From positions 1 through 53,017 of the IMG/VR virus record IMGVR_UViG_3300042465_003316: 53,017 nucleotides of DNA. The stretch is one strand, 5' to 3'. Positions 10,851-40,359 of the stretch are shown piece after piece. The DNA comes from a virus (lineage: Duplodnaviria; Caudoviricetes). Position 1 is the first letter of the stretch. Each line of letters begins with the position of its first letter. The position numbers and the translations under genes are program-made. The notes below the pieces were generated by a model, which worked only from the letters and a program-made list of their open reading frames with translations, searched no databases and was not told the DNA's origin.

Positions 10851-13685
10851 ATGGAACCAACACCAGACCAGATGCGGGAAGAACTGCAGGCGGCCAAAGA
10901 CCAACCAAAGCGGGTGTTGATCCCGGCGGAAGGCCCGGGCGGCGTGAAGGGCATCAAAGTCCCCCGGCACATGCTTGAAGGCGGCAACAAGGCGGAAGGC
11001 ATGAACGCCATCAACGCCGCACGGGCGCAGGTCTACGGGTCCGAGAACCGGCCACCGATCAACATCGGCCAGATGGGCCGCATCCACAAGAACACGCTGG
11101 ACGAACACTTCCAGAAGCCGTTGGACGCCCAATTGGACATCGAGGGCAAGGCACTGCAGCGGCTGCAGGCGGCCAAGCACATCGGGCGGACGGCGGACAC
11201 GCTGGACAAGAGCGAGAAGCTCGACACCGTCAACCACGAACACGATGAGCAGGGGCGCACCTACACCGGCATGGCGTCCAAGGGGATTGCCGGCCACGCG
11301 CTGTACACGTCCGGCCATGGTGCCAACGAGAAGCGGCACGTCCTGAATACCTGTCCCGGGCAGACCGCCGGCTGTGGGGGCGGGACTGACCAGAACGGCG
11401 TGGTGGACACCGCCAAGGGCACGTGCTTCGCGCCCAACGCCGAGTCGCAATACGTGAACGCCGCCGTCCGGCGGGCTTGCCATGCGCAGGCCAAGCACGA
11501 CCCGGCCATGACGCAAGACTGGATTCTGGCGCACACCGGCTCAATGCGCAACGCGGCACGGCTGGCGGACAACAAGGACAAACGCCTGCTGTTCCGGCCC
11601 AACGTGGTGGATGAGACAGACGTGTCTTCCCGGCACGTCATCAAGCACCTGAACAAGCAGCGGGCGCTGGAGGGCAAGCCGCCCATCACGGCCAACTCGT
11701 ACGGCAAGACCAACGAGATGCACGACCCGGCCAACGGGTACTACGTGACGCACTCCAACATCGGGCCCAAGGTCAAGAAGGGGGCGTCGGTGCAGGAGAA
11801 CATCGACCGCGACAAGCAGCGCGTCAGCCGCACCGTCACGGCGGCGTCGGCCAGCGGCAAGGACTTTGTCAACGATGAAGGCGAGAAAACGCCGCCCAAG
11901 AACTCCTACATGGTGACCGACGTCAAGCGGGACTCCCCGTTCGACAAGAAGATGCAGGGCGCGATCACGCACGCCAAGTACTGGTCCACCGGGCGTGCTT
12001 CAAGCGAGTTGGACGAAGACGAACGCAAGGAAGGGCCGGAGGGGCACTACGCCCCGGGCAACAAGCCCACTACGCCCGACAAGGCGCACTACGGCCACAC
12101 CACGCACGAAGGTCTGCGGTACGATTACCAGAAGCAACACATCCTGCATCCCCGGCTGGTGCAAGTGGGCAAGAACGACGACGGCACGCCGCACATGATC
12201 CCGACAGACTCCCGGTTCAAGGACGAGGAGTTCCTGCCCAAGAACCGGTTCAAGACCAAGAACGGCAAAGTGGCTGGCGCCATTCTGATGACCACGCCGA
12301 CTACATCAACCAGCAACGTCGGCCACCAGACATCGTTTACCCACCACGTGGGCGAGCACCATATTGAGCACGCGCTGAAGAACAACGGCGAGTACCAGAT
12401 CGACCCTCCGCATGAACAAGCGGCCAGTGCCGGCAAGGAGTACGCCCCACCACAACCCATCAAGTTTGTGAAGCGATTGGCGTCGGGCGGCTCTGTCGGA
12501 CACGACCAAGAGGCAGAGGCATTTGACGGGCACATGGCATTTCCCGAGCGGAGCTTTGCAGCCCAGCATCGGCTGGCGTATCGGCACGATCCGGAGGAGA
12601 TGGGTGAAATTGGCCTAAGAACCTACCGCGCCGGCGCCAAGCACATTGCGTCGATGGCGGGACAATCTACCGGCGTTCGACGGCGCATGGCTCAAGGCGG
12701 CAGCGTGGAGCCGAGCCAAGACGAGATGCTGGCCCGCGTCATGCTGCGCAAAAACGACATAAACCTCAAGGACATTGGTGCCAACGAGGCACCCAACATG
12801 AACGTCAAGGCCTACGCACCGCCGTCCGGAGGACCGGGTTTCCCCGTAGGCGGCGTCGACTTCCAGCCCGAGACTATGGGCCAACAGATGCTGCCGGGAG
12901 CCCCGGGGCAACCACCCGGCCAACCGCCACAAGCGGGCGGCCTACCCGGGGCTCCCGGCCAGCCACCAGCGCCAGCGGGCGGCCTACCCTCCGGCCCGCC
13001 CTCCGGCCCGCCCGGGGCACCGCCGCCCGGCGGCCCACAAGGCGCGCCCTCGCCGATGGCACGGGGCCCACAAGGGCCGCAGAGCAACATCCTGAGCATG
13101 ACCCGCCAAGGGCAGGCCCTGCAGGCCATGCGGCCCAACCCGGCGCCCGTGCGGCCCGGGATGCCGATGCCCAAGATGGCGGACGGTGGCAGCGTGGACG
13201 ACATGCGCAGGGCCATCGCCAATGCCGCGAAGTCGGCGGGCATGAAGGCACCGGTGGTGGCGAACAAGAACCTGACCACGATGCAGGACACTTACGAATC
13301 GTTACACGACAAGGTGCGCAAAGGCGCCGCCGACATGCAGGACATGATCGAGTCCATGCCGTACAAGTACGACGTAGGGCACCACGTGTTTACCGCCCAC
13401 AGCGCCAAGAACAACCTGCCGCCGTTCAAAGTGGTTCGCAAGGCGCTGGTGGGGAATTCCCCCATGCGCGAAGACTCCAAGATTGGGCCGGGGATGGGCA
13501 AGCCCATCAAGGACCCGGCAACCGGCAAGACCAAGCGCACGCCTTACGAACCCGGCTACGATGTTCGTAGGGAGCACAAAGGAGAAGTGCAGGAAATGCG
13601 CATCCCCGAGTCCGCAATCCTTGACAAGTTGGCCCGTGGTGGCACCGTTGGGAGCCACATCAAGCTGACGGAACGCAAGCTATGA
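10851..13685 (+). CDS. giant multidomain protein: Gp88-like Cys domain, Pro/Gly-rich linker, four xAxGGxV motifs
   Basis: Long ORF with phage-typical codon use between terL and portal; TCPGQTAGC...CF, FRPNV, YGKT, YYVTHS. Confidence 0.75.
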   Translation: MEPTPDQMREELQAAKDQPKRVLIPAEGPGGVKGIKVPRHMLEGGNKAEGMNAINAARAQVYGSENRPPINIGQMGRIHKNTLDEHFQKPLDAQLDIEGKALQRLQAAKHIGRTADTLDKSEKLDTVNHEHDEQGRTYTGMASKGIAGHALYTSGHGANEKRHVLNTCPGQTAGCGGGTDQNGVVDTAKGTCFAPNAESQYVNAAVRRACHAQAKHDPAMTQDWILAHTGSMRNAARLADNKDKRLLFRPNVVDETDVSSRHVIKHLNKQRALEGKPPITANSYGKTNEMHDPANGYYVTHSNIGPKVKKGASVQENIDRDKQRVSRTVTAASASGKDFVNDEGEKTPPKNSYMVTDVKRDSPFDKKMQGAITHAKYWSTGRASSELDEDERKEGPEGHYAPGNKPTTPDKAHYGHTTHEGLRYDYQKQHILHPRLVQVGKNDDGTPHMIPTDSRFKDEEFLPKNRFKTKNGKVAGAILMTTPTTSTSNVGHQTSFTHHVGEHHIEHALKNNGEYQIDPPHEQAASAGKEYAPPQPIKFVKRLASGGSVGHDQEAEAFDGHMAFPERSFAAQHRLAYRHDPEEMGEIGLRTYRAGAKHIASMAGQSTGVRRRMAQGGSVEPSQDEMLARVMLRKNDINLKDIGANEAPNMNVKAYAPPSGGPGFPVGGVDFQPETMGQQMLPGAPGQPPGQPPQAGGLPGAPGQPPAPAGGLPSGPPSGPPGAPPPGGPQGAPSPMARGPQGPQSNILSMTRQGQALQAMRPNPAPVRPGMPMPKMADGGSVDDMRRAIANAAKSAGMKAPVVANKNLTTMQDTYESLHDKVRKGAADMQDMIESMPYKYDVGHHVFTAHSAKNNLPPFKVVRKALVGNSPMREDSKIGPGMGKPIKDPATGKTKRTPYEPGYDVRREHKGEVQEMRIPESAILDKLARGGTVGSHIKLTERKL

Positions 13686-15946
13686 AGGGCTTCTACTCTC
13701 CCATCGACCGGCTCATGGAGCAGTCCACGCGTCCGCGTGGCACCGGGGCAGAGTACATGGCCGAGCTATCCAAGAAACCCGGGTACAAGCCACAGGAGGC
13801 CGAGGACCGCGACCTGCAGGCGCTCATGACGCTACCCAAGATGGAGCGGGCGGCGTTCATGGCAAAGCTCAAGGCCAAGCCGGCGGCCATGCCGGAGGAA
13901 AATACGTTTGCCAAAAGCATCCTAAAAAACCGTGGCTTAAACGTAGTACCAGACACAGAACCGCACCACGAGGACTACACCCTACCGGGCGGCACCAACT
14001 ACCGGGAGATACTGCTCCAGCACCCTAAGGGCGGTTTCTCCGGCGTCGAGGCGCACTTCGGTGGGGCGCCCAACGTGCTGGCTAGTATCCGTGCCAAGGA
14101 CCGAGTTGGGCCCAATGGCGAGAAGATACTGCACCTCGAGGAAATCCAGTCGGACTGGCACCAGCAGGGCCGGGAGAAGGGCTACCACCCCAAGGGCGTG
14201 GACATGGACAAGACGCTGGACGCAGCAAAGAACAAGCACAGCACTCTCCAGCGCCAGCTACAGAGTGCCAAGGCAAACGCAATAGCCGTGGAGCAGCGCA
14301 AGGCCGCTGCGGCCAACCCGGAGGAGCAGGCCCTCCACGACCGGATTCTGCAGGGCTACAACCGCAGCATCATGGACCTGATGCCGCAGGTCATGCGGGC
14401 GGACGAGGAGCTACGCAAGACCCAGCAACTGGCGTCAAGCGGCGTGCCGGATGCCCCGTTCAAGAAGGACTGGCACGAACTGGCCCTCAAGAAGATGATC
14501 CACCACGCCGCCGAGAATGGCTACGACCAGATTGCCATCACCCCGGGCGCGGAGCAGGCCAAGCGGTATAGGCTGAGTAAGCAGATCGATGAGTTGCGCT
14601 ACGGCGACGGGATGCTTGTGGCTACCAAGGGCGGCACCCTTGTCGTCAACAAGGAAACCACGCCCGCCGAGCTTTCTGACTTGGTCGGAAAAGAAGTTGC
14701 GGAGAGGCTTCTCAATTCACCGACTAGCGTCACTGGCAGCGGGTACAACGTGCTTTCAGGCCAAGACCTGAACATTGGCGGCGAGGGCATGAAGGGCTTC
14801 TACGACAAGATGGTGCCGGCGTTCCTGAACAAGTTCGGCAAGAAATACGGCAGCCAAGTCGGGCAAGTTAAGCTACCGGGCGATCCCTCCCAACGCGGTG
14901 ACGCCGCTGAGGCGCTCGGGGTAGCGCACGTACCTTTCACCGGCATGACCCCGCAGCAAATTGCGGAATTCAACCGAAAGCTGGACGACCATAGCGCCAC
15001 AACGCTGCATACCTTCAACATCACACCCCAGATGCGCGAGGACGTGGTGAAGAACGGCATCCCGCTTTATGCCAAGGGCGGCTCGGTTGAGGAAGATGTT
15101 CCACGTGAAACAACCAAGGCTTACAAGATGTTTCGGGTAGACAAGAAGCAGCCGGGTAAGTTGTTCCCGCTGTTTGTGGATGCCGATACCCCGGTGGAGA
15201 TGGGCAAGTGGATTGCGGCCAAAGAAGGCGAGAAGTCCGCCGCAAACACCAAGAAGGTTAAGTCCAAGATCGGCGACTTGGCGTACCGTCCGGGCTGGCA
15301 CGCGGGCGACCTTCCTGTCGCCACCCATATCGGTGAAAAGGATGAGGAGCAGAAGGCGGAAACCCAGCGCGTCAGGGCAATGCGTGACGCGCACGCGGCA
15401 ACGCTTGGCAACACCAAGGCTGCCAAAGCCATAGCCCGGAAGGAGCACCCGTACCCGTCATGGGTGAACGCCCCGCGTTTGCGCAACCCTAACCACATCT
15501 GGGCCGAGGTGGAGATGCCCAACGACGTGGACTGGCAGTCCGAGGCCACCAAACGCGGCTACAACGACCAAGGCAAGCTAATTGCCAGCCAAGCGCACAT
15601 CACCGACCAGTTGCCCAAGGGCGGGCACTACCGCTACAAGACTAACTCCAACATGCTGGGGAACTGGTTGATTGGGGGCTCGATGAAGGTCAACCGCATC
15701 CTGCGGGACGAAGAGGTCGAGGCAATCAACAAAGCCGCTGGTGCAGCCGACCTGCCGCGTGCTAAAGCCATGAACCAGAAAGCCTTTGGCTTTGCCGCAG
15801 GCGGCACCGTCGGGCCAGAGGAGTGGATGTCCGAGGAGCACGTGAATCACAAGCCCGGTAACCGCTCTGTAGTCAAAGAGAAAGTTACACTATCACCTAA
15901 CATGGATGTGATGCAGTACGAACTGCTTACCAAGAAAGCAAAATAA
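13682..15946 (+). CDS. giant two-domain polyvalent-type protein (EEIQSDWH domain plus AYRPGWH domain)
   Basis: GFYS...GGTNYREILL...EEIQSDWHQ...DAPFKK...GMKGFYD; domains separated by YAKGGSV and FAAGGTV. Confidence 0.75.
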   Translation: MKGFYSPIDRLMEQSTRPRGTGAEYMAELSKKPGYKPQEAEDRDLQALMTLPKMERAAFMAKLKAKPAAMPEENTFAKSILKNRGLNVVPDTEPHHEDYTLPGGTNYREILLQHPKGGFSGVEAHFGGAPNVLASIRAKDRVGPNGEKILHLEEIQSDWHQQGREKGYHPKGVDMDKTLDAAKNKHSTLQRQLQSAKANAIAVEQRKAAAANPEEQALHDRILQGYNRSIMDLMPQVMRADEELRKTQQLASSGVPDAPFKKDWHELALKKMIHHAAENGYDQIAITPGAEQAKRYRLSKQIDELRYGDGMLVATKGGTLVVNKETTPAELSDLVGKEVAERLLNSPTSVTGSGYNVLSGQDLNIGGEGMKGFYDKMVPAFLNKFGKKYGSQVGQVKLPGDPSQRGDAAEALGVAHVPFTGMTPQQIAEFNRKLDDHSATTLHTFNITPQMREDVVKNGIPLYAKGGSVEEDVPRETTKAYKMFRVDKKQPGKLFPLFVDADTPVEMGKWIAAKEGEKSAANTKKVKSKIGDLAYRPGWHAGDLPVATHIGEKDEEQKAETQRVRAMRDAHAATLGNTKAAKAIARKEHPYPSWVNAPRLRNPNHIWAEVEMPNDVDWQSEATKRGYNDQGKLIASQAHITDQLPKGGHYRYKTNSNMLGNWLIGGSMKVNRILRDEEVEAINKAAGAADLPRAKAMNQKAFGFAAGGTVGPEEWMSEEHVNHKPGNRSVVKEKVTLSPNMDVMQYELLTKKAK

Positions 15947-18435
15947 TGGCAGACACCTACGACAACCAAGACGACAACGATCCCGAGTTGAACGAAGACG
16001 GCTCGGCTGACGTGGACCTCGCAGAGGACATCTCCGACGTCATGGAGATGCCCGACGGCTCTGCCGTGGTGAACATGGAAACCAGCGGCCCGGAGGAGTC
16101 CCCGGACTTCTACTCCAACATGGCCGAGGAGCTTGACACGTTCGACCTGAACGCCATGGGCCTGCGCTACACCGGCCTGCTGGAGAAGGACAAGAACGCC
16201 CGCGAGGAGCGCGACAAGCAGTACGAGGAGGGCATCCGGCGCACGGGTCTGGGCAAGGACGCCCCCGGCGGGGCCAACTTCCTTGGTGCCAGTCGTGCGG
16301 TACACCCGGTCATGGCCGAGGGCTGCGTGGACTTCGCCTCCCGGGCGATCAAGGAGCTATTTCCCCCGGACGGCCCGGTGCGCACCAAGATCATCGGCAA
16401 GGTGGATGACCTCAAGCAGGAGCGTGCCGAGCGCAAGCGCGACTTCCTGAACTGGCAGATCACCGAGCAGATCGAGGAGTTCCGCGACGAGCAGGAGCAG
16501 ATGCTCACCCAACTGCCCCTCGGTGGCTCCCAGTACCTGAAGCTCTGGTACGACGAGCAGAAGAAACGCCCTTGCTTGGAGTTCCTGCCCATCGATCGGA
16601 TGATCCTGCCGTTTGCGGCCAGCAACTTCTACACCGCCCAGCGTGCCGCCGAGGTCCACGAGATCACCGAGTGGGAGTACGACCGGCGCATCGCCAGCGG
16701 GATGTACAAGGACGGGTCGCATGTCACCTCCGGCCAAGAGCCCGAGCAGACCCGCGCCCAGAAAGCCAACGACAAGATCGAGGGGCGCAAGTTCCAAGAC
16801 AACGAGGACGGGCTGCGCAAGGTGTTCCACATCTACACGTGGCTGGAGCTAGAGGACGACACGCACTCCAAGGGCGAGATGGCCCCGTACATCATGATGG
16901 TGGACGAGCAGTCCAACGAGGTCATCGGGTTGTACCGCAACTGGGAGGAGGGCGACGAGACGATGACCAAGCTCGATTGGATCATCGAGTTCAAGTTCAT
17001 CCCGTGGCGTGGCGTGTTCGCCATCGGCCTGCCGCACCTCATCGGCGGCCTGAGCGCGGCCCTGACAGGCGCCCTGCGTGCGCTGCTGGACTCCGCGCAC
17101 ATCAATAACGCCGCGACCATGCTCAAGCTCAAGGGAGCCAAGATCAGCGGCCAAACCCAGCAGATCGAGGTCACTCAGGTGGCCGAGATCGAGGGTGCAC
17201 CCGGTGTGGACGACATCCGCAAGATCGCCATGCCCATGCCGTTCAACCCACCGAGCCCGGTGCTATTTCAGCTTCTGGGCTGGCTGGACAGCGCCGCCAA
17301 GGGGGTAGTGACCACCAGCGAGGAGAAGATCGCTGACGTGACCTCCAACAGCCCCGTGGGCACCACACAGGCCCTGATCGAACAAGGTGCCGCCGTGTAC
17401 TCGGCGATCCACGCACGGCTACACCAGTCGCAGGCGCGGCTGATTAAGGTGCTGTGCCGGCTCAACCGGTGGCACTTCAAGGAGATGCGCAAGGGCGACA
17501 TGGTTGCCGACTTGGCGATCGAGAAGGAAGACTTCGAGAAGAACACCGACGTCATCCCCGTCAGCGACCCACACATCTTCTCCGAGACGCAGCGCATGGC
17601 GCAGATGCAGGCCGTGCTATCCCGGGCGGACGCCAAGGCCGACCTGTACGACGCCAAGGCGGTCGAGGAGCGGTTCCTCAAGCAACTCAAGATTCCCAAC
17701 GTCAGCGAGTTGCTCAAGAACGTCCCCGAGCCCGAGCAGCGCACGCTGGCCGACGAGAACGCGGCCATGTCCATGGGCCACCCGGCCTACGCCTACATCC
17801 AGCAGGACCACATTGCGCACATCCAAGGCCACCTGATGTTTGGCATGGACCCATCTTTTGGTGCCAACCCGTTCATTGCCCCGGCGTTCCTGCCCAACGC
17901 AGTGGAGCACATCAAGCAGCACATGACGCTGTGGTACCTGAACCGCATGAACGGCTACGTCACCAACCTACGCGGAGGCAAGCCCGTGGACGACTACGAG
18001 AACCCCAAGCTCACGGCGGTCATCGACAAGCTCTACGCCACCGTCGGGCAGCACGTAGCCATGGACAGCCAGCAGGTGTTCTCGCAGATTCTGCCGCAGC
18101 TACAGCAACTCCAGCAGGCCCTGCAGCAGAACAAGACCTCGCCGCCACTGCCACCCGATGCGCAGGTCGTCAAGGACACAGCCATGGCCGAGACACAGCG
18201 CAAGGCCGCCAAGGACCAGCAGGACGGCCAGATCGCGCAGGCCAAACTGCAGGACAGCCAGCAGCGCGGCCAAGCCGACATGCAGGCCAAGGCGCAGGCT
18301 GCGCAGCAGTCAGGGCAACTACAATTGCAAATCGCAAATATCAACAATCAGGCGCGAATTGAAATCGAGAACGCCAAGTTGATGCACGAAACCATTAACC
18401 AACCACAGCAAGGAGTTCCAAATGGCAGTATCTGA
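15946..18435 (+). CDS. portal protein
   Basis: HPVMAE, ELFPPDGPV, LPLGG...KLWYD, PVGTTQALIEQG, Gln-rich C-terminal barrel typical of P22-like podovirus portals; position. Confidence 0.9.
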   Translation: MADTYDNQDDNDPELNEDGSADVDLAEDISDVMEMPDGSAVVNMETSGPEESPDFYSNMAEELDTFDLNAMGLRYTGLLEKDKNAREERDKQYEEGIRRTGLGKDAPGGANFLGASRAVHPVMAEGCVDFASRAIKELFPPDGPVRTKIIGKVDDLKQERAERKRDFLNWQITEQIEEFRDEQEQMLTQLPLGGSQYLKLWYDEQKKRPCLEFLPIDRMILPFAASNFYTAQRAAEVHEITEWEYDRRIASGMYKDGSHVTSGQEPEQTRAQKANDKIEGRKFQDNEDGLRKVFHIYTWLELEDDTHSKGEMAPYIMMVDEQSNEVIGLYRNWEEGDETMTKLDWIIEFKFIPWRGVFAIGLPHLIGGLSAALTGALRALLDSAHINNAATMLKLKGAKISGQTQQIEVTQVAEIEGAPGVDDIRKIAMPMPFNPPSPVLFQLLGWLDSAAKGVVTTSEEKIADVTSNSPVGTTQALIEQGAAVYSAIHARLHQSQARLIKVLCRLNRWHFKEMRKGDMVADLAIEKEDFEKNTDVIPVSDPHIFSETQRMAQMQAVLSRADAKADLYDAKAVEERFLKQLKIPNVSELLKNVPEPEQRTLADENAAMSMGHPAYAYIQQDHIAHIQGHLMFGMDPSFGANPFIAPAFLPNAVEHIKQHMTLWYLNRMNGYVTNLRGGKPVDDYENPKLTAVIDKLYATVGQHVAMDSQQVFSQILPQLQQLQQALQQNKTSPPLPPDAQVVKDTAMAETQRKAAKDQQDGQIAQAKLQDSQQRGQADMQAKAQAAQQSGQLQLQIANINNQARIEIENAKLMHETINQPQQGVPNGSI

Positions 18436-18574: not shown

Positions 18575-18741
18575 TCTCAGAACTCATTCACCAAATCCAA
18601 GTGCGGCAAGCGGAAATCCGCATGTCGTTGGTGAATAACCCGGTGGGCGACCACCACATATATTCCCGCGTCGTTGGGGAGTATCAGGGCCTGCAATGGG
18701 TCCTCGATACCCTCAACGCAAAACTCGCCGAAAACGAATAA
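18571..18741 (+). CDS. small helical head-module protein (56 aa, absent from ORF track)
   Basis: GTGA coupling; Y..VVGEYQGL...L pattern; lies between portal and the GroES-like gene. Confidence 0.65.
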   Translation: MISELIHQIQVRQAEIRMSLVNNPVGDHHIYSRVVGEYQGLQWVLDTLNAKLAENE

Positions 18742-18817
18742 GGCCGCAAGGCCCCAAGCCGCGCTGAAATATGCGCATCTCGAACCTGAAATATGGTTTA
18801 TGTCGACAGGAGTGAGT

Positions 18818-19273
18818 ATGAGTGAGCAGAAGGTGCCTACTATTGTGGGTACACAACAGACGTCCGATCCAACTGAGTTGGCGTGGGCATTTCCAGAGAT
18901 ACAGGCCGGTCAAGCCCCATTTGGGGGACGCGTCATTGTTCAGCTTCGCCGCATCAAGAAGAGCGCGGGGAAGATTATTCTGGTGGAAGAAACCAAAGAG
19001 AACGAGAAGTGGAACAACATGATTGGAAAGGTCGTGGCTATTGGGCCATTGGCTTTTAAAAATCGTGACACCATGACATCGTGGCCGGAGGGTAGTTGGG
19101 CGCAGGTAGGTGACTACGTCCGCGTCCCGCGCTGGGGCGGCGATCGCTGGGAACGCTTTGTTTCCACCGAAGAAAACGGCGACCTAAATCCCGTTTTGTT
19201 CATGACGATCAACGACCATGAACTAATCGCCCGGGTCACCGACGATCCGCTCTCATTCAAAGCCTACGTCTAA
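18818..19273 (+). CDS. GroES-like co-chaperonin
   Basis: PFGGRVIVQ...GKIILV...GKVVAIGPLA...WAQVGDYV...INDHELIA; AGGAG RBS. Confidence 0.85.
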   Translation: MSEQKVPTIVGTQQTSDPTELAWAFPEIQAGQAPFGGRVIVQLRRIKKSAGKIILVEETKENEKWNNMIGKVVAIGPLAFKNRDTMTSWPEGSWAQVGDYVRVPRWGGDRWERFVSTEENGDLNPVLFMTINDHELIARVTDDPLSFKAYV

Positions 19274-19282
19274 GGAAATACC

Positions 19283-20218
19283 ATGGCAAACGACAAAGAA
19301 GACGACTTGCACGTCGAAGAAGGTCAGGACGGCACCGCTACGGTGGAGCTTCCTGAGGGCATTTTGCCCAAAAACGAGGGGGAAAACACCTCGTCGGACG
19401 ACGGCGGCGACGTCGATCATCCCGATGACAGCGAGGCGGTGCGTGCCGCACGCCGCGCACGCCGCCGGTCCAAGAAGGACCTGATCCGAAAGACCAACGA
19501 GGAGAAGGACGTCCGGCTGCAGGCCATCCAACGCGAGAACGAGGACCTCCGCAACCGTCTTTCCCGGGTAGAACAGCGCACCCAAGGCGCCGATTTGGCT
19601 CGTTTGGACAAGACGATCGAGGACCAGCAGGTTCGGCTTGAGTACCACCGCATGAAACTGGCGGAAGCCACCAGTGCGGGTGACGGCGAGTCGGCTGTCA
19701 AGGCCCAAGAGGCGCTCTACGAGTCCCGGCAGCAGCTTGATCAGCTTGCAAGGCTGCGAAAACAGGCCGAACAGTCGGATAAGGCGCCCGCGCAGACCAT
19801 CGACCCGGGTGTTCAGCGCAACGCGTCCACGTGGATTGACCGGAACAGTTGGTATAAACCCGATTTGTCGGATACCGACAGCAAAATCGCCAAACAGGTC
19901 GATGAGGTGCTCACAAAAGAGGGCTGGAACCCGTCCGATCCCGATTATTGGGACGAATTGGACAATAGGTTGCAAAAATATTTGCCACATCGATATAATG
20001 GTGCGGACAAGCGTGAATCCAGTCAACGAACACCTAGGAACACCGTGGGAAGCTCAGGACGCGAGGCATCTGCCGCATACGGGGGCACAAACCGGACTTT
20101 TACTCTCTCCGCTGAACAAGTGCGAGCGATGAAAGACGCTGGTATGTGGGACAACCCCGAAAAGCGGGCCAAGATGATCAAACGATATGCAGCCGAATCA
20201 CGTAACCGGAGTAACTAA
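19283..20218 (+). CDS. putative capsid scaffolding protein
   Basis: Acidic N-terminus, long coiled coil, position between portal and capsid. Confidence 0.65.
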   Translation: MANDKEDDLHVEEGQDGTATVELPEGILPKNEGENTSSDDGGDVDHPDDSEAVRAARRARRRSKKDLIRKTNEEKDVRLQAIQRENEDLRNRLSRVEQRTQGADLARLDKTIEDQQVRLEYHRMKLAEATSAGDGESAVKAQEALYESRQQLDQLARLRKQAEQSDKAPAQTIDPGVQRNASTWIDRNSWYKPDLSDTDSKIAKQVDEVLTKEGWNPSDPDYWDELDNRLQKYLPHRYNGADKRESSQRTPRNTVGSSGREASAAYGGTNRTFTLSAEQVRAMKDAGMWDNPEKRAKMIKRYAAESRNRSN

Positions 20219-20767
20219 ATGACTGAATCACGCCTGAAAAAATCTCTCAATGCCGGCGGACGCAACGATCGCGCAAGCGAGGACGCAAGCCGTGCGGCAC
20301 CCGAGGATAAGTTCGCTTCTACGCAAGAACGTCGCAAGATGTGGAACGAGGAGTGGACGCAATCAGCGTTGCCTAAACTACCCAGCCTGAGTGGGTGGCA
20401 TCTTTGCTGGCTCTCAACAACCAACACTTACGACTCCATCGACAAAAGGATTCGCCAAGGGTACGTTCCAGTGAAAACTGAAGAGTTACCCGGGTATGAA
20501 GACCTGCGCGTGAAGACCGGTGAGCACGTTGGATATATCTCCTGCAACGAGATGTTGCTGTTCAAACTACCCATGGATGTCTACCAAGAGATCATGGCGT
20601 ACATGCACGACGAGAAACCCCGTGAGGAAGCGGAAAAAATCCGCGTCCAAGTGGAGCAACTCCAAGGCGCAAGGGACAGCAACGGCAAGTCGCTGGTGGG
20701 CATTGAGGGCGACGGAATGGGCAATTTTGACAAGCAAACCAATCGCACGCCGGTATTTTCCGGCTAA
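20219..20767 (+). CDS. conserved head-module hypothetical protein
   Basis: W...LP...GWHLCWLS...GYVPV...LLFKLP; operon position. Confidence 0.7.
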   Translation: MTESRLKKSLNAGGRNDRASEDASRAAPEDKFASTQERRKMWNEEWTQSALPKLPSLSGWHLCWLSTTNTYDSIDKRIRQGYVPVKTEELPGYEDLRVKTGEHVGYISCNEMLLFKLPMDVYQEIMAYMHDEKPREEAEKIRVQVEQLQGARDSNGKSLVGIEGDGMGNFDKQTNRTPVFSG

Positions 20768-21374: not shown

Positions 21375-22289
21375 ATGGCTGCACCAATGAGAAGTACGGA
21401 CTTCCGAAGCATCGTCGAACCAATTTTGAACGAATGCTTCGATGGAGTCTACGACCAACGCGCCGACGAATGGTCACGGGTTTTCCGTGAAGAAGACGGC
21501 ATCCCCCGCAACTACCACGAAGAGCCCGTCCTGTACGGTTTCGGCGCGGCACCTCAACTGCCTGACGGCACCCCGGTGACGTACCAACAAGGTGGTGTGC
21601 TGTTCCTGAAACGCTACGTCTACAAGGTCTACGGTCTAGCTTTTGCCCTGACCAAGGTCCTCGTGGAAGATGGCGACCACATCCGTCTGGGTCAGGTGTA
21701 CGCACGTCACTTGGCGCAGTCTCTGGTGGAAACCAAGGAACTGCTGTCCGCCAACGTCTTGAACACTGCCTTCAACAGCGCGTACCCCGGCGGCGACGGC
21801 GTGTCGCTGATCAACACCGCTCACCCCATCGTGAACGGCACGTTCAGCAACCAGTTGGCAACCGCCGCTGTGCTTTCGCAAACCTCCCTTGAGCAGATGC
21901 TGATCCAAGTACGCCAAGCTGTGGACAACAACGGCAAGAAAATCCGTTTGGTGCCCAAGCAACTGGTCGTGGCTCCGGGCAACGTCTTCCAATCGGAAGT
22001 GCTGCTGAAGTCGGTTCTGCGTGCCGGCAACGCCAACAACGACGTCAACCCCATCAAGTCTATCGGCTTGCTGGACGGCGGCGCTACTGTGCTGAGTCGT
22101 CTGACCAGTGCCAACGCATGGTGGGTCCAGACCGACGCTCCCGAGGGCCTCAAGCTCTTGATGCGCCGTCGTCTGGAGAAGACCATGGAAGGCGACTTCG
22201 AGACCGACTCGATGCGTTACAAGGCCACCGAGCGCTACGACGTGGGCTTCACTGACCCCCGCGCAGCCTACGGCACTCCGGGCATCTAA
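21375..22289 (+). CDS. major capsid protein (HK97 fold)
   Basis: AAGGAG RBS, highly biased codons; GGDGVSLINTAHP, PKQLVVAP, DFETDSMRYKATERY..GFTDPR. Confidence 0.9.
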   Translation: MAAPMRSTDFRSIVEPILNECFDGVYDQRADEWSRVFREEDGIPRNYHEEPVLYGFGAAPQLPDGTPVTYQQGGVLFLKRYVYKVYGLAFALTKVLVEDGDHIRLGQVYARHLAQSLVETKELLSANVLNTAFNSAYPGGDGVSLINTAHPIVNGTFSNQLATAAVLSQTSLEQMLIQVRQAVDNNGKKIRLVPKQLVVAPGNVFQSEVLLKSVLRAGNANNDVNPIKSIGLLDGGATVLSRLTSANAWWVQTDAPEGLKLLMRRRLEKTMEGDFETDSMRYKATERYDVGFTDPRAAYGTPGI

Positions 22290-23341: not shown

Positions 23342-24658
23342 ATGGGTCAATTCAAACCAATGGTGAAGATGGAAACCACCGAGCCCTCGGTGATCCTGAA
23401 GCTGAAAAAGGGAGGCCACGTTTCGTCCGACAAAGACGAAAACGGCCACACCAACATGAAGGGCGCTGGCTTCAAGGCCAAGTATTCCGAAGAGGCTTGC
23501 GAAGGCGAGTCTCCCAAGAAGCCCTCGATGATGGATCGCCGCAAGGCAATGTCCGGTGCCATGCTGAACTCCAAAAACGGCGGCAAGGCCGAGAAAAAGG
23601 CCATGGGTGGCATGATGGGCAGGCCGGCGATGGCCGCGCCCGCTATGGACCCCCGCAGGGCGGCCATGATGAAAGCCATGATGGCCCGCAAGGCCGCTAT
23701 GGGTGCTGTTCCAATGGCAGCCCCGATGGCGGCCCCCGGCATGCCTGCCATGAAAAAAGGCGGCAAGGCTGACATGGACCAAGACAAGGCCATGGTCAAA
23801 AAGGCTTTCAAGCAGCACGACATGCAGGAGCACAAGGGCGGCAAGGGCGGCAAGGGCACCAAGCTCAAGCTGGCTACGGGCGGCTTGACCAACCCAATGA
23901 AAAAGGGGGGTTCCATCAACGATTTTCTCCACACCAAAACCGTGAAGATGAAGACCGCTGAGGGCTACCAAAAGTACGCCGAAGGTGGCGCTGTTAGTGG
24001 AAACGCTTTGAAAACCGTGAACATGGTTACGGCGGGCAAGGCCACTGGTGGCTTGACCAACCCAATGAAAAAGGGGGGTTCCATCAACGATTTTCTCCAC
24101 ACCAAAACCGTGAAGATGAAGACCGCTGATGGCTACCAAAAGTACGCCGAAGGTGGCGCTGTTAGTGGAAACGCTTTGAAAACCGTGAACATGGTTACGG
24201 CGGGCAAGGCCACTGGTGGCGTGGTAAATGGCATGGCTACGGGCGGTCTGACCAATCCTATGAAAAAAGGCGGTGCCGCAAAAAAGCATTTCGCCACGGG
24301 GGGCAGTGTTAGCACTGGCCGCGCCGTGGCAATGCCCAAGCATCCTGTCTCTAAGCCGGTAAGCAACACCGCCCAATCCGGCACCTTCAAAGAGGGCGGA
24401 AAGGTGAGTAAATTTCAGGTTGGAGGCGGGGCCGGGAACACAGACATGGGGACGGACATGACCGGCGGTGGGTACGATAGGTACTACACGGACCTTGAAA
24501 AAGGTAACGTGAAAGACCGGGAAGCCATTACTGGTTTGCCCGGTAGGGCTTACTCCGCCGCTAAACGGTTGTTAGGCATCAAACCTGAGGCAGGGGCCGG
24601 CAGGGGGAATGTAAACCCCCCTCTTGTCCGCAAATCGGGCGGCAGCGCTAAACGGTAA
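23342..24658 (+). CDS. Lys/Met/Gly-rich repeat protein with about 17 xxxGG motifs
   Basis: MKKGG, YAEGG, FATGG and KATGG repeats; AAGGAG RBS; downstream terminator. Confidence 0.8.
   Translation: MGQFKPMVKMETTEPSVILKLKKGGHVSSDKDENGHTNMKGAGFKAKYSEEACEGESPKKPSMMDRRKAMSGAMLNSKNGGKAEKKAMGGMMGRPAMAAPAMDPRRAAMMKAMMARKAAMGAVPMAAPMAAPGMPAMKKGGKADMDQDKAMVKKAFKQHDMQEHKGGKGGKGTKLKLATGGLTNPMKKGGSINDFLHTKTVKMKTAEGYQKYAEGGAVSGNALKTVNMVTAGKATGGLTNPMKKGGSINDFLHTKTVKMKTADGYQKYAEGGAVSGNALKTVNMVTAGKATGGVVNGMATGGLTNPMKKGGAAKKHFATGGSVSTGRAVAMPKHPVSKPVSNTAQSGTFKEGGKVSKFQVGGGAGNTDMGTDMTGGGYDRYYTDLEKGNVKDREAITGLPGRAYSAAKRLLGIKPEAGAGRGNVNPPLVRKSGGSAKR
23882..24220 (+). repeat. 168-bp near-perfect tandem duplication (56 aa)
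   Basis: GGCTTGACCAACCCAATGAAAAAGGGGGG at 23882 and 24050; I see a single GAG/GAT difference. Confidence 0.9.
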
Positions 24659-24991: not shown

Positions 24992-25639
24992 ATGCCAAGC
25001 AAATCACCGGCCCAACATCGTTTGATGCAAGCCGCTGCCCACACCAAGGGCGGCTTTGGCGGCGTCCCGCAGAAGGTCGGCAAAGAGTTTGTCAAGGCCG
25101 ACAAAATGGCAGAAGGCGGAGTGGTTCAGTCTTTGAAAAAAGCTGGGTTTTATGAAACAGGGAAAGATAAAGCAGAACGCCTAAAAATCATCGATAACGT
25201 AACAACCAAACCTCAACGGGTGCAAATTGTGGAAAAACTATTTTCAACCAAGAAAATGAAAGAGGGTGGTCTGTACGCCAACATCCATGCCAAGCAGGAG
25301 CGTATTGCCAAGGGCTCAGATGAGCGCATGCGCAAACCGGACAGCAAGGGCGCGCCAACTGCCACGGCTTTCCGGGATTCGGCAAAGACCAAGCGGATGG
25401 CCGATGGCGGCGTTGCAAGCCTTGGGGGCATGGTTTCCAGCACGCCCAACACACCAACGGTAGCCTCGCGTGATAACAGCCGAGCACCGCAAAACATGTT
25501 GGACGGTGCCCAACAGACAGCGGATAACGACATTGAAGGTGGTGACGGTGAAAAGATGTACGGCTACAAGAAGGGTGGTCACATCACCACCCGGCGTATG
25601 TCTACCTGCAGCCCATCCAAGAAGTCTTCCAACTGGTAA
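24992..25639 (+). CDS. basic modular protein with four xxxGG motifs
   Basis: MAEGGVV, MKEGGL, MADGGVA and YKKGGHI separate short modules. Confidence 0.75.
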   Translation: MPSKSPAQHRLMQAAAHTKGGFGGVPQKVGKEFVKADKMAEGGVVQSLKKAGFYETGKDKAERLKIIDNVTTKPQRVQIVEKLFSTKKMKEGGLYANIHAKQERIAKGSDERMRKPDSKGAPTATAFRDSAKTKRMADGGVASLGGMVSSTPNTPTVASRDNSRAPQNMLDGAQQTADNDIEGGDGEKMYGYKKGGHITTRRMSTCSPSKKSSNW

Positions 25640-25908: not shown

Positions 25909-26982
25909 ATGGCGTACTCCGGCACCGTCGGTCAGACCGTAATCTCCGTCCAGACGCTGATCGATCACGGTGCGCGTCGTTGCGGCAAGCTGGCCGAAGA
26001 GTTGGCGGTCGAGCAAGTGCAATCGGCCAAGGAGTCGCTCTTCTTTTTCCTGTCCAATCTGGCGAACCTTGGGATCAACTACTGGGCCATCAACAAGACC
26101 GTCATTGGCCTGAACGCTAACCAGTACATCTACAGCCTCCCGGTGGGCGCTGTGGACGCCCAGAACGTGCTCTACAGGCAGATGAACAGGCCGGTGGGTA
26201 CCTACACCTCATCCGCAGGCGGAACGGCCTCCAACGCCGCTGACAACGACCTGACCACGTACTGCCAGCAGACATCCACCAACGGCAACATCGCCGTGGA
26301 TTTTGGCGTTACGGACCCGCAGTACATCGGCTCCATCGGGTTCATGCCCTACGTTGCCGGCGGCGGCAGTGCCACGTGGAACTACGTGCTGGAATACTCC
26401 ACGGACGGTGTGGCATGGAACAACCTTGCCACGGGCGTTAACGTAGCGGTGTCGGACATGGCTTGGGTGTGGACGGACATCGACCCCGGCCAGAACGTCG
26501 AGTTCTACCGCATGCGTGCCACCAATGGCACCACGCTGTCCCTGCGCGAGTTGTATTTTGGCAACAACTCCCGCGAACTGCAGATGTCCCGGCTGAACCG
26601 CGACGACTACACCAACCTGCCCAACAAGAATTTCACGGCCAACCAGCCTTTCCAGTTCTGGTTCGATCGGACCATCCCCCAGCCCACGATGTACCTGTGG
26701 CCGGTGCCGTCTGACCCATTCGTGCAGATGACGGTGTGGTACTCACGCCAGATCATGGACGTGGGTGCCCTGAACGGCCAGCTAGAGATACCCCAGCGCT
26801 GGTACGAGGCGGTCCTGATGAACCTGTCCCACCGGATGAGCTTGGAGCTACCGGGCGTGCCCTTGGATCGCGTTGGGTACCTTGAGAAGATGGCCGCCCA
26901 GTATCTCAATGACGCCGAGAGCGAAGAACGGGATAAATCTCCGATTTATCTGGCCCCGAATATTTCAGTTTACACACGCTGA
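25909..26982 (+). CDS. putative head-tail adaptor with inserted F5/8 (discoidin)-like domain
   Basis: N-terminal helices; LNRDDYTNLPNK...P.QFWFDR...YLWPVP; central LEYSTDGVAW...YRMRA insert. Confidence 0.65.
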   Translation: MAYSGTVGQTVISVQTLIDHGARRCGKLAEELAVEQVQSAKESLFFFLSNLANLGINYWAINKTVIGLNANQYIYSLPVGAVDAQNVLYRQMNRPVGTYTSSAGGTASNAADNDLTTYCQQTSTNGNIAVDFGVTDPQYIGSIGFMPYVAGGGSATWNYVLEYSTDGVAWNNLATGVNVAVSDMAWVWTDIDPGQNVEFYRMRATNGTTLSLRELYFGNNSRELQMSRLNRDDYTNLPNKNFTANQPFQFWFDRTIPQPTMYLWPVPSDPFVQMTVWYSRQIMDVGALNGQLEIPQRWYEAVLMNLSHRMSLELPGVPLDRVGYLEKMAAQYLNDAESEERDKSPIYLAPNISVYTR

Positions 26983-30887: not shown

Positions 30888-30934
30888 CGGGACGCTGCCA
30901 CCCGCTCTTGGCAGCACACTGAAAGGAAAGCGAT

Positions 30935-31419: not shown

Positions 31420-31421
31420 AC

Positions 31422-32886: not shown

Positions 32887-32894
32887 GAGCAGCC

Positions 32895-33754: not shown

Positions 33755-33756
33755 CC

Positions 33757-37013: not shown

Positions 37014-37240
37014 GGATTGCGCAGGTCTACGACCCCCGCAATCTCACGTGGGACGCATGGTGTGCGCTCATGTCCGAGTTGTTTGCGGCAAACCAGCTTG
37101 GCGTTTCACCGGAAAGCGAGTGGCACCAGTGGGCGGACGCGGTGTCCGGTATCGGTCGATTTGCGGGGGTTCCGGGCAGCACCGGCTTCGGAACATGGCA
37201 AGATTGGGCCTTCGCCTTCGCAAATGCCTTACGACGGTAA
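37010..37240 (+). CDS. small Trp-rich tail-region protein
   Basis: DPR.LTW..W...W..WA...WQDWA; ATGA coupling. Confidence 0.7.
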   Translation: MRIAQVYDPRNLTWDAWCALMSELFAANQLGVSPESEWHQWADAVSGIGRFAGVPGSTGFGTWQDWAFAFANALRR

Positions 37241-37251
37241 GATAAAGCACC

Positions 37252-40200
37252 ATGAACATCCTAGAACTAAAGCGCAGCGCCCGGGGATACTCCTACCGCG
37301 AAGGCGGGGATCAGTTTAACTATCCAACAACAGCGCCATCAACACTTGGGACTTACCAAGGCGATGACGAGAGTAGGTACCCTGCGGTTGTTCAACCTGC
37401 GCCCGTTGTGGTTGCTCCACCTGTAATTGCTCCATCTGCGCTCTCCGTAGTACAACCTACTGTTGCAGCGGGAATTGCCAAAAACGGCCCTTCTGCGGGC
37501 CAACAGTTAGGAGCTGTTATTGGTAGAACGGGAGGCGGCGGTCCCAATGTTGATATTCCGGTTACCGAATACATCGAGGCATACGAATCCGTTAACCCTG
37601 ATGGGACCATCAACAGGTACGACACCCAAGGGAATTTCGTTACCACGTATACATCGAATGGCAGCGATATTGTTGGTGACTTTTTTGCCGGGATCGACTC
37701 TTCGTTGGGGTTGTCTAGCGGGCTTACCTCTATTGGCAAGGGTTTAGAAAACTTGGACAACACCTTGGGCTTGTCTAGAAACGCCCCGGCCATTGTTGGT
37801 ATGGCTGCTTCGTACTTTTTACCCGGGATCGGGCAGGCGCTTGGGCAGTCGTTGGTAAACGCCGGGGTTCTTACGGGTGCAGCCGCCACCCCCGCTATGG
37901 CAACAACCATAGGCACAGCGTTAGCGCAAACAGGGGTTAGCGTAGCTCAAGGACAACCCCTAGACAAAGCTCTTGGCAGCGCCATCATTTCTGTAGGATT
38001 GGGGGCTTATGGCGCAGATATAAAATCAGCCATAGGCCAAATAACCACTAACCCGATTGCTCAGAACGCCATTTTTAAAGCTGGGACTGACGTTGTAACC
38101 GCAGTGGCCCAAGGCAAAAGCGGGGATGAAGTGCTGCAGGGTATTGGGCAGTCTATAGTTTCTACGGTAGCTAACTCTGCCGCCACTGAAGCTGTAAAGA
38201 ACATCCCCGGAATAGATAACTTATCCCCTGCCCAACAGAACATCGTTAAGACTGGCATTGCCACCTCCATCCAAGGTGGCGACGGCACTAAGTCGATGCT
38301 CAATTCTGCGATCAACGCAGGGGCAAACTACGTACTAGACGCGGTGACAGCTACCCCCGGTGCATCCGCAGCTAACCCCATGTCACAAGACCCGGCGCAA
38401 CGGGCTGCGTCCGCAGACACAACAGCAAGCGCCACCACACCCACCCCAAGCATTACAGACATCCTCGCTGATGCAAGATTGAGCGAGCCTAATCTATCGC
38501 CCGAAACGGTCGCGGATATTCTTGGCACGCCGGGAGAGGTTCAACCGGGGTATGTTACCGCAGGGCTTGATACTGGGGTTGTAAGCGATGCTGGGGGCGG
38601 CGGTGGCGCACCTGCTTATATTAGTAGCGGGCGTCCTATCTACTCCGAGGACAGCCGCGCATCAACTGTCGTACCACCTGAAGGTTTTGAGGTCTTATCC
38701 GCAGAGAAAGCTGATAATAAACCTGCCGGATCGTATTACGACGCGGAGTTGAATGCTTGGCTTACACCACAAGCGCCGTACCCAATCGAGTCTGATATTC
38801 CCGACTACCTTGGCACGGGTTCGGACGCGGTTGACTTGCCCGACGAGCAAATTCCGAGCGATAAGGTTACGACGGATTTTGAAGATTTAGTAGCCGCTGG
38901 TGTCGATCCTAATTTGGCTCTTCAACTAGCCATGCAGGGGAATACCGGCACCGGTTCTGTGGCCGGTGGCGGCACAGGCGGTGCTACCGGCGGCGGTGGC
39001 GATCTGACGGATGGTGGGGGTCTACCCTCAACGGTAGTCGACATCCCAGATTACATCGGGGGTGGCGATCTGACGGATGGTGGGGGTCTACCCTCAACGG
39101 TAGTCGACATCCCAGATTACATCGGGGGTGGCGATCTGACGGATGGTGGGGGTCTACCATCAACGGTAGTCGACATCCCAGATTACATCGGGGGCGGTGA
39201 CCTGCCCGGTGGCGGCGGGGGTCTACCATCAACGGTAGTCGACATCCCAGATTACATCGGGGGTGGTGGCGCTCTGCCACCGCTATCCGACTTGCCCTTG
39301 ACGGATGTTGGGTCGCCCGGGCCTGTGACAAACGTAATCGCCGACCTGCCGCCACTATCCGACTTGCCCTTGACGGATGTTGGGTCGCCCGGGCCTGTGA
39401 CGGAAGTAATCGCGGATACTCCCGCGCCGGTGACCCCGGTGACCCCGCCGCCAGTGACCCCGTTGCCAGTGACCCCGGTGACCCCCGTCAAGCCAACCGT
39501 TACACCGACTGTTACGCCAACCGTTACAAGCAGCGGTGGGCTGCCCACTTTAAAATACTCAGACCCGTCTGTTATTTCCGGGGGCGGCCTTCTACACGTA
39601 GGGAAAATGGGGCAAGATATGAACGACCGTCAGCTAAAACAACTCTACGACAGTATCGTAAAAGACACCTCACCGGATTACGACTACGTGGAGGACACGA
39701 AACCAGAAACGGTGGATATTCTCAGAGCAAATACCCTGCCCTTTTCCACGCCGCAGCCCAACTACTCAGGATTCTCGGGGTACTCAGGCTACGCCCAAGG
39801 CGGCCCGGTTCAGAACCTCGCCGAGGGTAGCCAACCCGACCAGTCCTACGCCGTGCGGGACACCATGGCCGCACTGAAGGGCCTCGGCGCCTTGGGGTTC
39901 GATGGTAAGCCCGATCGGCCCCAGCTACTGAAGCAGGGCCAGATGGGTGGGACCCACAACCCCAAGGTGCTTCCCCAGCTTGCGGCACTCCTGCGGGCCC
40001 GGGGAATGACGCTCGCCGAGGGCGGGCAGCCGGACGACCACACCCACCCGAACTACGACGGCGTGCCCCTGCTGCGCACGGGGGGCCTGAGCGGCTTGGG
40101 TGGCAAGTACGTGGAGGGCAAGGGCGACGGCACCAGCGACGATATCGCGGCGATGCTTGCCAACGGTGAGTACGTGTTTTCGGCGGACGTGGTGGCGGCA

Positions 40201-40359
40201 CTGGGGAACGGCTCGAACAAAGCCGGAGCGGAAGAACTTGACAGGATGGTGCGAGCCATCCGCTCCCGGGCCCGGTCTGCGCCACCGGACAAACTGCCCC
40301 CGGATGCCAAGTCTCCGCTAGAATACCTGAAGTCCTCAAAGGGGAAAACGCATGGCTGA
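37252..40359 (+). CDS. internal virion/ejection-type protein with tandem repeats and C-terminal GxGDGTSD...NGEYV domain
   Basis: Gly/Ala membrane-like segments, acidic repeats, C-terminal domain; position after nozzle. Confidence 0.7.
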   Translation: MNILELKRSARGYSYREGGDQFNYPTTAPSTLGTYQGDDESRYPAVVQPAPVVVAPPVIAPSALSVVQPTVAAGIAKNGPSAGQQLGAVIGRTGGGGPNVDIPVTEYIEAYESVNPDGTINRYDTQGNFVTTYTSNGSDIVGDFFAGIDSSLGLSSGLTSIGKGLENLDNTLGLSRNAPAIVGMAASYFLPGIGQALGQSLVNAGVLTGAAATPAMATTIGTALAQTGVSVAQGQPLDKALGSAIISVGLGAYGADIKSAIGQITTNPIAQNAIFKAGTDVVTAVAQGKSGDEVLQGIGQSIVSTVANSAATEAVKNIPGIDNLSPAQQNIVKTGIATSIQGGDGTKSMLNSAINAGANYVLDAVTATPGASAANPMSQDPAQRAASADTTASATTPTPSITDILADARLSEPNLSPETVADILGTPGEVQPGYVTAGLDTGVVSDAGGGGGAPAYISSGRPIYSEDSRASTVVPPEGFEVLSAEKADNKPAGSYYDAELNAWLTPQAPYPIESDIPDYLGTGSDAVDLPDEQIPSDKVTTDFEDLVAAGVDPNLALQLAMQGNTGTGSVAGGGTGGATGGGGDLTDGGGLPSTVVDIPDYIGGGDLTDGGGLPSTVVDIPDYIGGGDLTDGGGLPSTVVDIPDYIGGGDLPGGGGGLPSTVVDIPDYIGGGGALPPLSDLPLTDVGSPGPVTNVIADLPPLSDLPLTDVGSPGPVTEVIADTPAPVTPVTPPPVTPLPVTPVTPVKPTVTPTVTPTVTSSGGLPTLKYSDPSVISGGGLLHVGKMGQDMNDRQLKQLYDSIVKDTSPDYDYVEDTKPETVDILRANTLPFSTPQPNYSGFSGYSGYAQGGPVQNLAEGSQPDQSYAVRDTMAALKGLGALGFDGKPDRPQLLKQGQMGGTHNPKVLPQLAALLRARGMTLAEGGQPDDHTHPNYDGVPLLRTGGLSGLGGKYVEGKGDGTSDDIAAMLANGEYVFSADVVAALGNGSNKAGAEELDRMVRAIRSRARSAPPDKLPPDAKSPLEYLKSSKGKTHG
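38992..39530 (+). repeat. coding tandem repeats: 4 x 66 bp, 2 x 72 bp, then PVT/TPTV low-complexity
   Basis: GGGDLTDGGGLPSTVVDIPDYI x4 (D codons at 39001, 39067, 39133, 39199); LPPLSDLPLTDVGSPGPVT..IAD x2. Confidence 0.9.

Follow-up and report, generated by a model that had tools for sequence, protein, structure and literature searches.

The virus genome analysed here, IMG/VR record IMGVR_UViG_3300042465_003316 (53,017 bases, with an estimated completeness of 88%; its whole length is referred to below as the window), is that of a podovirus-like phage from an uncultured freshwater clade, in which five late proteins share the short motif [FYML][AK]xGGx[VIL]. The analysis of this phage and of its relatives established a modular cargo system whose joints carry a conserved and specifically constrained linear motif. 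The motif looks like a built-in cutting or docking code. The reading that we favour, at somewhat less than an even chance, is that it may act as an endoproteolytic processing site in a polyprotein cargo system.

The five open reading frames (ORFs) 10851, 13682, 23342, 24992 and 37252 contain 16 copies of this strict motif (4, 2, 7, 2 and 1, respectively), and the same regular-expression scan found no copy in the other 36 ORFs of the window. When the 41 ORFs (15,534 residues) were shuffled protein by protein 2000 times, the number of strict copies averaged 0.60 with a maximum of 5, and none of the 2000 shuffles reached the observed 16, which confirmed the enrichment; about 14 of the copies are independent, since two pairs in ORF 23342 sit in a tandem duplication. 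A relaxed core, [FYML][AKR]xGG, was found 25 times in the five ORFs (3,386 residues; shuffle mean 1.6, maximum 6) and twice in the other 36 (12,148 residues). ORF 23342 carries 7 strict and 11 relaxed copies among 20 Gly-Gly dipeptides. A sequence-only reading of the window had first reported the motif, and all of the positions that it gave for ORF 10851 (LASGGSV at 12477, MAQGGSV at 12687, MADGGSV at 13176 and LARGGTV at 13629) and ORF 13682 (YAKGGSV at 15068 and FAAGGTV at 15791) were verified; the peptides that it named in ORFs 23342, 24992 and 37252 were likewise present. Its totals of about 30 copies in the five proteins and about 17 in ORF 23342 proved too high under both definitions. 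It had also proposed that the copies use different codons and that conservation is therefore at the protein level; the codon comparison agreed, and a repeat or recombination signal at the DNA level was ruled out for the same reason.

Two of the five bearers, all of which are on the plus strand, are neighbours located between the terminase and portal genes. Polyvalent cargo protein A (ORF 10851, nt 10851-13685; 944 residues) has strict copies at nt 12477-12497, 12687-12707, 13176-13196 and 13629-13649, and comprises a folded N-terminal domain (about residues 1-530), a 70-residue segment, a Pro/Gln-rich spacer, a second folded domain (about residues 782-928) and a tail of 13 residues. Polyvalent cargo protein B (ORF 13682, nt 13682-15946; 754 residues), with strict copies at nt 15068-15088 and 15791-15811, starts with a conserved module, c1 (residues 1-467), which is followed by a phrog_30118/phrog_12224 module (about residues 470-706) and a conserved C-terminal tail. 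The start of ORF 13682 overlaps the stop of ORF 10851 (13682-13685) and its own stop overlaps the portal start (15946); these overlapping stop and start codons suggest that translation of both cargo genes and the portal gene is coupled.

ORF 23342 (nt 23342-24658; 438 residues) encodes a motif-dense protein rich in Met, Lys, Ala and Gly, which is predicted to be disordered: its ESM Atlas model had a predicted local distance difference test score (pLDDT) of 0.36 and a predicted template modelling score (pTM) of 0.13. The strict copies, of 21 nt each, start at nt 23402, 23897, 23975, 24065, 24143, 24290 and 24386. In an alignment of 31 homologs, the first 25 residues, ending in LKKGG, were near-invariant and the remainder was 36-83% identical; a set of 35 homologs contained 1-8 strict copies each, with a mode of 5. 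Matches in the ESM Atlas were to unnamed viral clusters only. In many homologs the C-terminal sequence is [KR]xGGxA[KM]C, its Cys being the final residue, and the window copy (24646-24658) ends in SGGSAKR.

ORF 24992 (nt 24992-25639; 215 residues) is a string of mini-proteins linked by the motif, which is found in strict form at nt 25106-25126 and 25565-25585 and in relaxed form at 25256 (MKEGGL) and 25397 (MADGGVA). Its residues 1-39 matched phrog_16759 and its residues 90-134 matched phrog_16028, two profiles that are just 58 and 50 positions long. The unit at residues 90-134 occurs in 79 phage records, mostly from T7-like cyanophages, pelagiphages and roseophages, and stand-alone ORFs of 51 and 52 residues in Synechococcus phage S-SBP1 and Stenotrophomonas phage BUCT555 span the units between motifs. 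That these units are encoded as separate proteins in other phages argues that they work as free proteins.

The fifth bearer, ORF 37252 (nt 37252-40359; 1035 residues), encodes an ejection or internal-type protein with weak matches to phrog_6090 and phrog_3547. Four motif-like peptides had been listed for it and all four are present, of which only YAQGGPV (nt 39790-39810) is conserved in relatives: it was kept in two of the examined loci (L087 and L091) and in the uncultured phage MW202545, and was missing in Caulobacter phage RW. This copy precedes a conserved C-terminal domain similar to tape-measure and internal-protein families. Elsewhere in the same protein (residues ~570-720; nt 38950-39300) we observed tandem peptide repeats, GGDLTDGGGLPSTVVDIPDYI in about four copies followed by LPPLSDLPLTDVGSPGPVT twice, together with Pro/Thr/Val-rich tracts.

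A portal-based scan of viral contigs yielded 440 relatives, and the best 80 of these, with portals 64-98% identical, were examined. Homologs were counted from de novo ORF calls assigned by best hit to the window proteins, with near-duplicate loci included, so that the following counts are not independent: 112 strict copies in 56 homologs of ORF 10851, 95 in 56 homologs of ORF 13682, 195 in 36 homologs of ORF 23342 and 9 in 23 homologs of ORF 24992, with none in 82 portals, 65 terminases, 41 capsid proteins and 74 GroES-like proteins. A further 11 copies were found in 72 homologs of the scaffold-like protein, about 30-40 residues from the N-terminus where present, and 30 in 551 unassigned ORFs. 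The terminase-portal interval held at least one motif in 60 of the 61 IMG/VR loci in which it was complete (median 3, range 0-7). The motif was also found in MW202675, a distant lineage with a portal 25% and a capsid protein 32% identical, where it is present in four large post-portal proteins, one of them Lys-rich with many copies. Caulobacter phage RW shares the head genes and has a terminase-portal gap of only 383 bases; no homolog of ORF 23342 or ORF 24992 and no motif was found in it. The cultured marine phages CRP-212 (Roseobacter) and HTVC028P (Pelagibacter) have related modules in which no motif was found, which argues that the motif is clade-specific and not general to polyvalent proteins. 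By these comparisons, it is a property of the whole phage clade.

The consensus over 384-390 distinct contexts was Tyr > Phe > Met > Leu (a choice of residues imposed by the search pattern), Ala > Lys, a polar residue, Gly, Gly, a mostly polar residue, and Val far ahead of Ile. Four non-glycine positions were strongly constrained in the 390 contexts. Immediately before Gly-Gly hydrophobic residues were almost absent, with no Pro, Ile or Leu against 27, 14 and 24 expected, and the second position after it was Val in 320 and Ile in 60 of the 390.

The sequence-only reading had further placed the copies between recognisable domains or peptides, and had suggested a check for domain swaps at the motif in related phages. 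We obtained an AlphaFold2 model of ORF 10851 from a 47-row alignment (mean pLDDT 64.7), in which the two folded regions given above were resolved and all four copies, at residues 543, 613, 776 and 927, were placed at their edges with pLDDT below 50. Limits of high-scoring segment pairs with relatives fell at about residues 545-550, 610-620 and 782-815 of the same protein. Similarly, in the model of c1 from ORF 13682 (pLDDT 84) the motif is at the end of the domain, where confidence drops. Both models thus came out in favour of the proposed boundary position.

Module exchange was followed by splitting 175 motif-bearing ORFs after each Gly-Gly and clustering the pieces at 60% mutual coverage. 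The motif-bounded segments formed 106 clusters, which were found in dozens of orders such as c1-c13, c1-c8, c1-c10-c8, c12-c6-c5 and c9-c11-c5. In BLAST comparisons of 113 large proteins, 15.1% of 4025 distinct internal alignment ends lay within 5 residues of a motif, compared with 2.1% of random positions (maximum 2.8% in 200 trials), an effect of about sevenfold in a statistic whose pairs of relatives are not independent. Since alignment ends and reshuffled clusters coincide with the motif, we conclude that related phages exchange modules there, and on these sequence comparisons the motif marks nearly every joint between swappable cargo modules.

Fifty-one residues or fewer, often 13, separated the last motif from the C-terminus in 58 of 103 distinct ORFs of polyvalent type. 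The tails that follow it belong to two conserved classes, KDYIRITER(K/P)L and VTVSPxLDxMxYEL…K; to judge from the ATGA overlaps, part of the first class is probably accounted for by the next gene, whose ribosome-binding site and start codon overlap it. A helix following the motif (EEMRRAL, similar to the C-terminus of the scaffold-like protein) was considered as part of it and rejected, as it was found in only 14 of 419 contexts and belongs to a few module families.

In order to assign the modules to families, 69 cluster representatives of at least 80 residues were searched (E ≤ 0.001). Eight matched ART-PolyVal (E 3.7e-12 in a module of a relative), four matched ASCH, and LPD23, GNAT acetyltransferase, GDSL lipase, DUF6321 and DUF3990 were matched once each; one representative matched GP88 weakly. 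Most of the 106 clusters were without a known family. One cluster bears an HEGRHR signature, which we take to be ParB-like. The profile matches of the two window proteins themselves were limited to a GP88-like match of the N-terminal domain of ORF 10851 (Pfam, E 4.3e-4, short of the cutoff) and a PHROG profile of 2564 residues.

Because modules of their relatives match ART-PolyVal and LPD23, we assign ORFs 10851 and 13682 to the polyvalent class described by Iyer et al. (2017; PMC5512222). That paper proposes that such proteins are packaged, injected and processed into units, mainly by their own zincin-like MPTase domains, which are present in about 36% of its set, and its main text mentions no glycine or linker motif. 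Polyvalent proteins have several disparate domains per chain, and the window proteins do as well, with two folds in ORF 10851 and c1 plus the phrog_30118 module in ORF 13682. Their signature domains, ART-PolyVal and LPD, were found in the modules of relatives, whereas the window's own pair has only the GP88 match below cutoff. Their late-gene, virion-associated context is also seen here, with the terminase-portal placement constant in 60 of 61 loci. The genes adjoin the portal gene and the modules of relatives are of effector type, in agreement with the earlier view that the bearers are late proteins of cargo type. It had called the five proteins otherwise unrelated; there are indeed five bearers, but two of them are polyvalent effectors of one architectural class. 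Literature searches found no description of a Gly-Gly motif at junctions or cleavage sites in phages. Collectively, the polyvalent class is already known, and what is new is the junction motif together with the disordered multi-copy protein, the string of mini-proteins and the absence of a known enzyme.

Processing is the reading that we favour because the motif is present at every joint, including those between units that are free proteins elsewhere, and because conserved terminal peptides lie alongside it. Strings of effector-type domains would be packaged in the head and then injected, and an endoprotease would recognise the motif and split the precursors into modules, be it during capsid maturation, within the particle, or once they have been injected. 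The enzyme could be a new phage protein or a host protease. The terminal peptides beside the outermost motifs, namely the first 25 residues of ORF 23342 and both classes of C-terminal tail, may be removable targeting pieces. As every module carries an identical joint, modules would be exchangeable between proteins and phages without loss of processing. Cleavage, its scissile bond, the enzyme, packaging and injection are steps that we infer. In a more inclusive version, which we consider possible but doubtful, the clade, whose freshwater phages are abundant, would use a universal seven-residue joint as a plug-and-play code to assemble, exchange and later separate injected effectors and peptides, its reader being a protease of a novel kind (a new head protein, with that of ORF 20219 as the only candidate seen, or a hijacked host enzyme), and the joint might serve capsid loading too.

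Several results weigh against processing, and the absent protease is its main weakness. The sequence-only reading had noted no conventional prohead protease, and PHROGs and/or Pfam searches detected neither such a protease nor any other peptidase family in the searched ORFs of the window; no protease is annotated in the complete relative MW202545. Polyvalent proteins often, although not obligatorily, carry a peptidase of their own, and no peptidase family was found among the 69 module representatives (E ≤ 0.001). Modules with HExxH are rare (two clusters, 3 segments), and MPTase-type processing was rejected as a general mechanism on both of these grounds. Several polar residues are invariant in c1, the module with the highest conservation; a fold search of its model (ORF 13682, residues 1-468) against PDB gave no match at E ≤ 0.001 and no protease-like fold. 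Since 18 of the 63 loci whose terminase-portal interval is complete have no c1, this module was rejected as a universal cis-protease. The only cultured relative, Caulobacter phage RW, is without the motif system. The absence of the motif from capsid and portal proteins argues that it does not belong to a general head-maturation protease system. A cut at the last motif, which lies within 51 residues of the end in 58 of 103 proteins, would trim only a short tail, and its near-terminal position is explained equally well or better by docking if the tail carries no targeting signal. No scissile bond can be read from the motif, because conserved residues flank Gly-Gly on both sides and the residue that follows is not limited to small ones. 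Its spacing is also unlike that of known Gly-Gly-specific sites, the hydrophobic residue being three positions before the first Gly and not two.

With regard to folds and candidate enzymes, the whole ORF 10851 model gave no match in the PDB fold search at E ≤ 0.001, and profile searches of c1 and of ORF 20219 against PDB sequences returned nothing significant; c1 is, as modelled, a predicted novel fold. ORF 20219 (nt 20219-20767, plus strand) encodes a head-module protein of 182 residues without an assigned function, in which His61, Asp72, Cys109, Asn110 and Glu111 were invariant among 38 homologs; Caulobacter phage RW has Val at position 109. No PHROG, Pfam or structure match was obtained for it, its ESM Atlas matches were to unnamed viral clusters only, and no clear homolog was found in MW202675. 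Its His-Asp-Cys order recalls that of His-Asp-Cys proteases, and on this resemblance it is a speculative lead to the enzyme that would read the motif. Self-cleavage through an N-to-O acyl shift was discarded, as Ser, Thr or Cys follows Gly-Gly in only about one third of contexts.

The strongest competitor to processing, which we nevertheless regard as rather unlikely, is that the motif stays uncut and serves as a docking or loading tag. It would bind a repeated site in the procapsid interior (the inner face of the capsid, the scaffold or the portal) and tether the modules there, with ORF 23342 as a multivalent internal thread. A tag needs no protease, in line with the failure to detect one in the window ORFs or the modules, and it would account for motifs kept 13-37 residues from the C-terminus, where only a short tail remains. 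Hydrophobic anchors around a Gly-Gly turn with polar residues between them are typical of groove-docking peptides, the disordered ORF 23342 protein with its 5-8 copies is reminiscent of CsoS2, which binds a shell multivalently, and the capsid protein is 87-99% identical across relatives while the cargo diverges, as would be the case for a fixed receptor with changing ligands. However, docking gives no reason for copies at every joint or between mini-proteins that are encoded separately elsewhere, and the other conserved terminal peptides could be the true packaging signals. In addition, three further ejection-type ORFs (40352, 41523 and 43436) were without a copy, phage RW has equivalent head genes and no ligand, and no receptor was found.

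We consider it improbable that the joint is passive, that is, a favoured flexible Gly-Gly hinge that recombination has carried along with the modules and that nothing reads specifically. The copies do sit in disordered linkers, and homology breakpoints coincide with them. Generic linkers, however, do not keep a pattern like that of the four constrained non-glycine positions, the differing codons mean that homology for recombination is not conserved at the DNA level, and the motif has been kept in lineages with portals of 25% identity. Very improbable is a motif read by a chaperonin or another host factor, by which a mimic of the GroES-type mobile loop, or another host-read peptide, would recruit a host machine to each module: a GroES-like gene does lie beside the portal gene in every clade member and GroES mobile loops have Gly-Gly followed by hydrophobic residues, but the motif differs from that loop in its polar residue right after Gly-Gly, single Val and upstream aromatic residue, phage RW retains the GroES-like gene without the motif, and the disordered multi-copy protein has no obvious need of help in folding. 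The remaining probability belongs to mechanisms other than these, and cleavage and docking could both apply.

The other genes of this podovirus-like genome are as follows. A primase-helicase is encoded at nt 2087-4114 (plus strand, as are all genes given here by coordinates), and replication genes are found at the right end on the minus strand. An HNH endonuclease gene (6706-7179; phrog_99, E 1.3e-51) separates replication from packaging genes, the latter comprising the terminase small subunit (8897-9409) and the terminase large subunit (9402-10823), which was identified by profile matches and carries no motif. The portal gene (15946-18435; profile match, no motif) is followed by those for a GroES-like co-chaperonin (18674-19273), a coiled-coil scaffold-like protein (19283-20218; the window copy is without the motif), two small head-module proteins, one of them that of ORF 20219, and the major capsid protein (21375-22289), which has a major head protein PHROG match and no motif. 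Downstream of the capsid gene are ORFs 22366, 23342 and 24992, the adaptor (25909-26982), a tail fibre, an endolysin and virion structural proteins, with four large ejection-type ORFs at 37252-44911. Among public records, the uncultured phage MW202545, in which P22-type adaptor and "stabilization" proteins are annotated, is nearest, with Caulobacter phage RW at a greater distance.

The listed TTG start of the GroES-like protein is probably too far upstream, since conservation starts near residue 49, and the real start is probably near nt 18818. This protein has a mobile-loop-like sequence, KKSAGKIIL, and its gene lies beside the portal gene in all relatives, including RW and MW202675. A short acidic peptide, DG[ST]AxV[DE]L, is common to the N-termini of the portal (DGSADVDL, DGSAVVNM; nt 15946-16100) and the scaffold-like protein (DGTATVELPE; nt 19283-19370) and may represent a portal-scaffold contact. 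Inserted in the adaptor is an F5/8 type C (discoidin-like) domain (Pfam, E 5.5e-6, slightly short of the cutoff). At the position of ORFs 22366 and 23342, Caulobacter phage RW encodes GP085c (L002, 33153-34658), a Cys-rich protein of 501 residues with the look of a nuclease-type insertion. Homologs of ORF 23342 on contigs binned into metagenome-assembled genomes (L097-L108) carry mostly the labels Betaproteobacteria, Burkholderiales or Burkholderiaceae, with single labels of Hyphomicrobium, Porticoccaceae and Dechloromonas. Binning of phage contigs is unreliable, and these labels are a weak hint that freshwater Betaproteobacteria of the Burkholderiales type are the hosts.

Polyvalent proteins are thought to be a main route by which phages deliver counter-defence and takeover enzymes together with their DNA, and a junction motif that is found across a clade makes their loading, and their separation into working units, directly testable. 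With the motif as a simple guide, unknown effector modules can also be delimited in phage genomes from metagenomes, as with the 106 segment clusters obtained here, and a new protease or receptor could come to light through it. Should the joint prove portable, it would offer a natural rule of design for loading phage heads with foreign proteins.

Polyprotein processing classically shows itself by a site at each joint, as in the head proteins of phiKZ and SPN3US, in adenovirus and in African swine fever virus. In the prohead-protease systems of T4 (gp21) and of the giant phages phiKZ and SPN3US, one consensus recurs in many internal head proteins, short terminal propeptides lie beside the site and some proteins have many sites; likewise, five proteins of the window share the motif, with terminal peptides and a many-site protein among them. 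T4 internal proteins carry removable capsid-targeting sequences, which the near-invariant terminal peptides beside the outermost motifs resemble. The differences are in the chemistry of the motif, in the lack of any detected S77/S78/S80-type or ClpP-like protease and in the motif-free capsid and portal proteins. The clan CE peptidases adenain of adenovirus and pS273R of African swine fever virus recognise a consensus (M/I/L)XGG. They too have a hydrophobic residue upstream of Gly-Gly and substrates inside the capsid with the DNA, and small basic peptide products are possible. In the 390 contexts here, however, the hydrophobic residue is (by the search pattern) one position further from Gly-Gly, with Ala or Lys and a polar residue between, and a conserved Val lies two positions after Gly-Gly; Pfam searches of the window gave no match to any clan CE peptidase.

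Cargo-loading peptides of encapsulins combine an HK97-fold shell with a short cargo-associated peptide, and ORF 21375 of the window matches major head protein PHROGs. Those peptides are usually single and terminal, whereas the motif is mostly internal, multiple and situated at joints and exchange points; in many proteins, one copy is nevertheless retained close to the C-terminal end. CsoS2 is a disordered protein with repeated copies, as is predicted for ORF 23342. Finally, polymorphic toxins have demarcation motifs, VENN in CdiA and PxxxxDPxGL in Rhs proteins, the latter being also a cleavage site. The clade described here resembles them in having a short motif at the point where cassettes are exchanged; in those toxins there is one junction before a C-terminal toxin, whereas here there are several junctions per protein, in predicted virion components of a phage.

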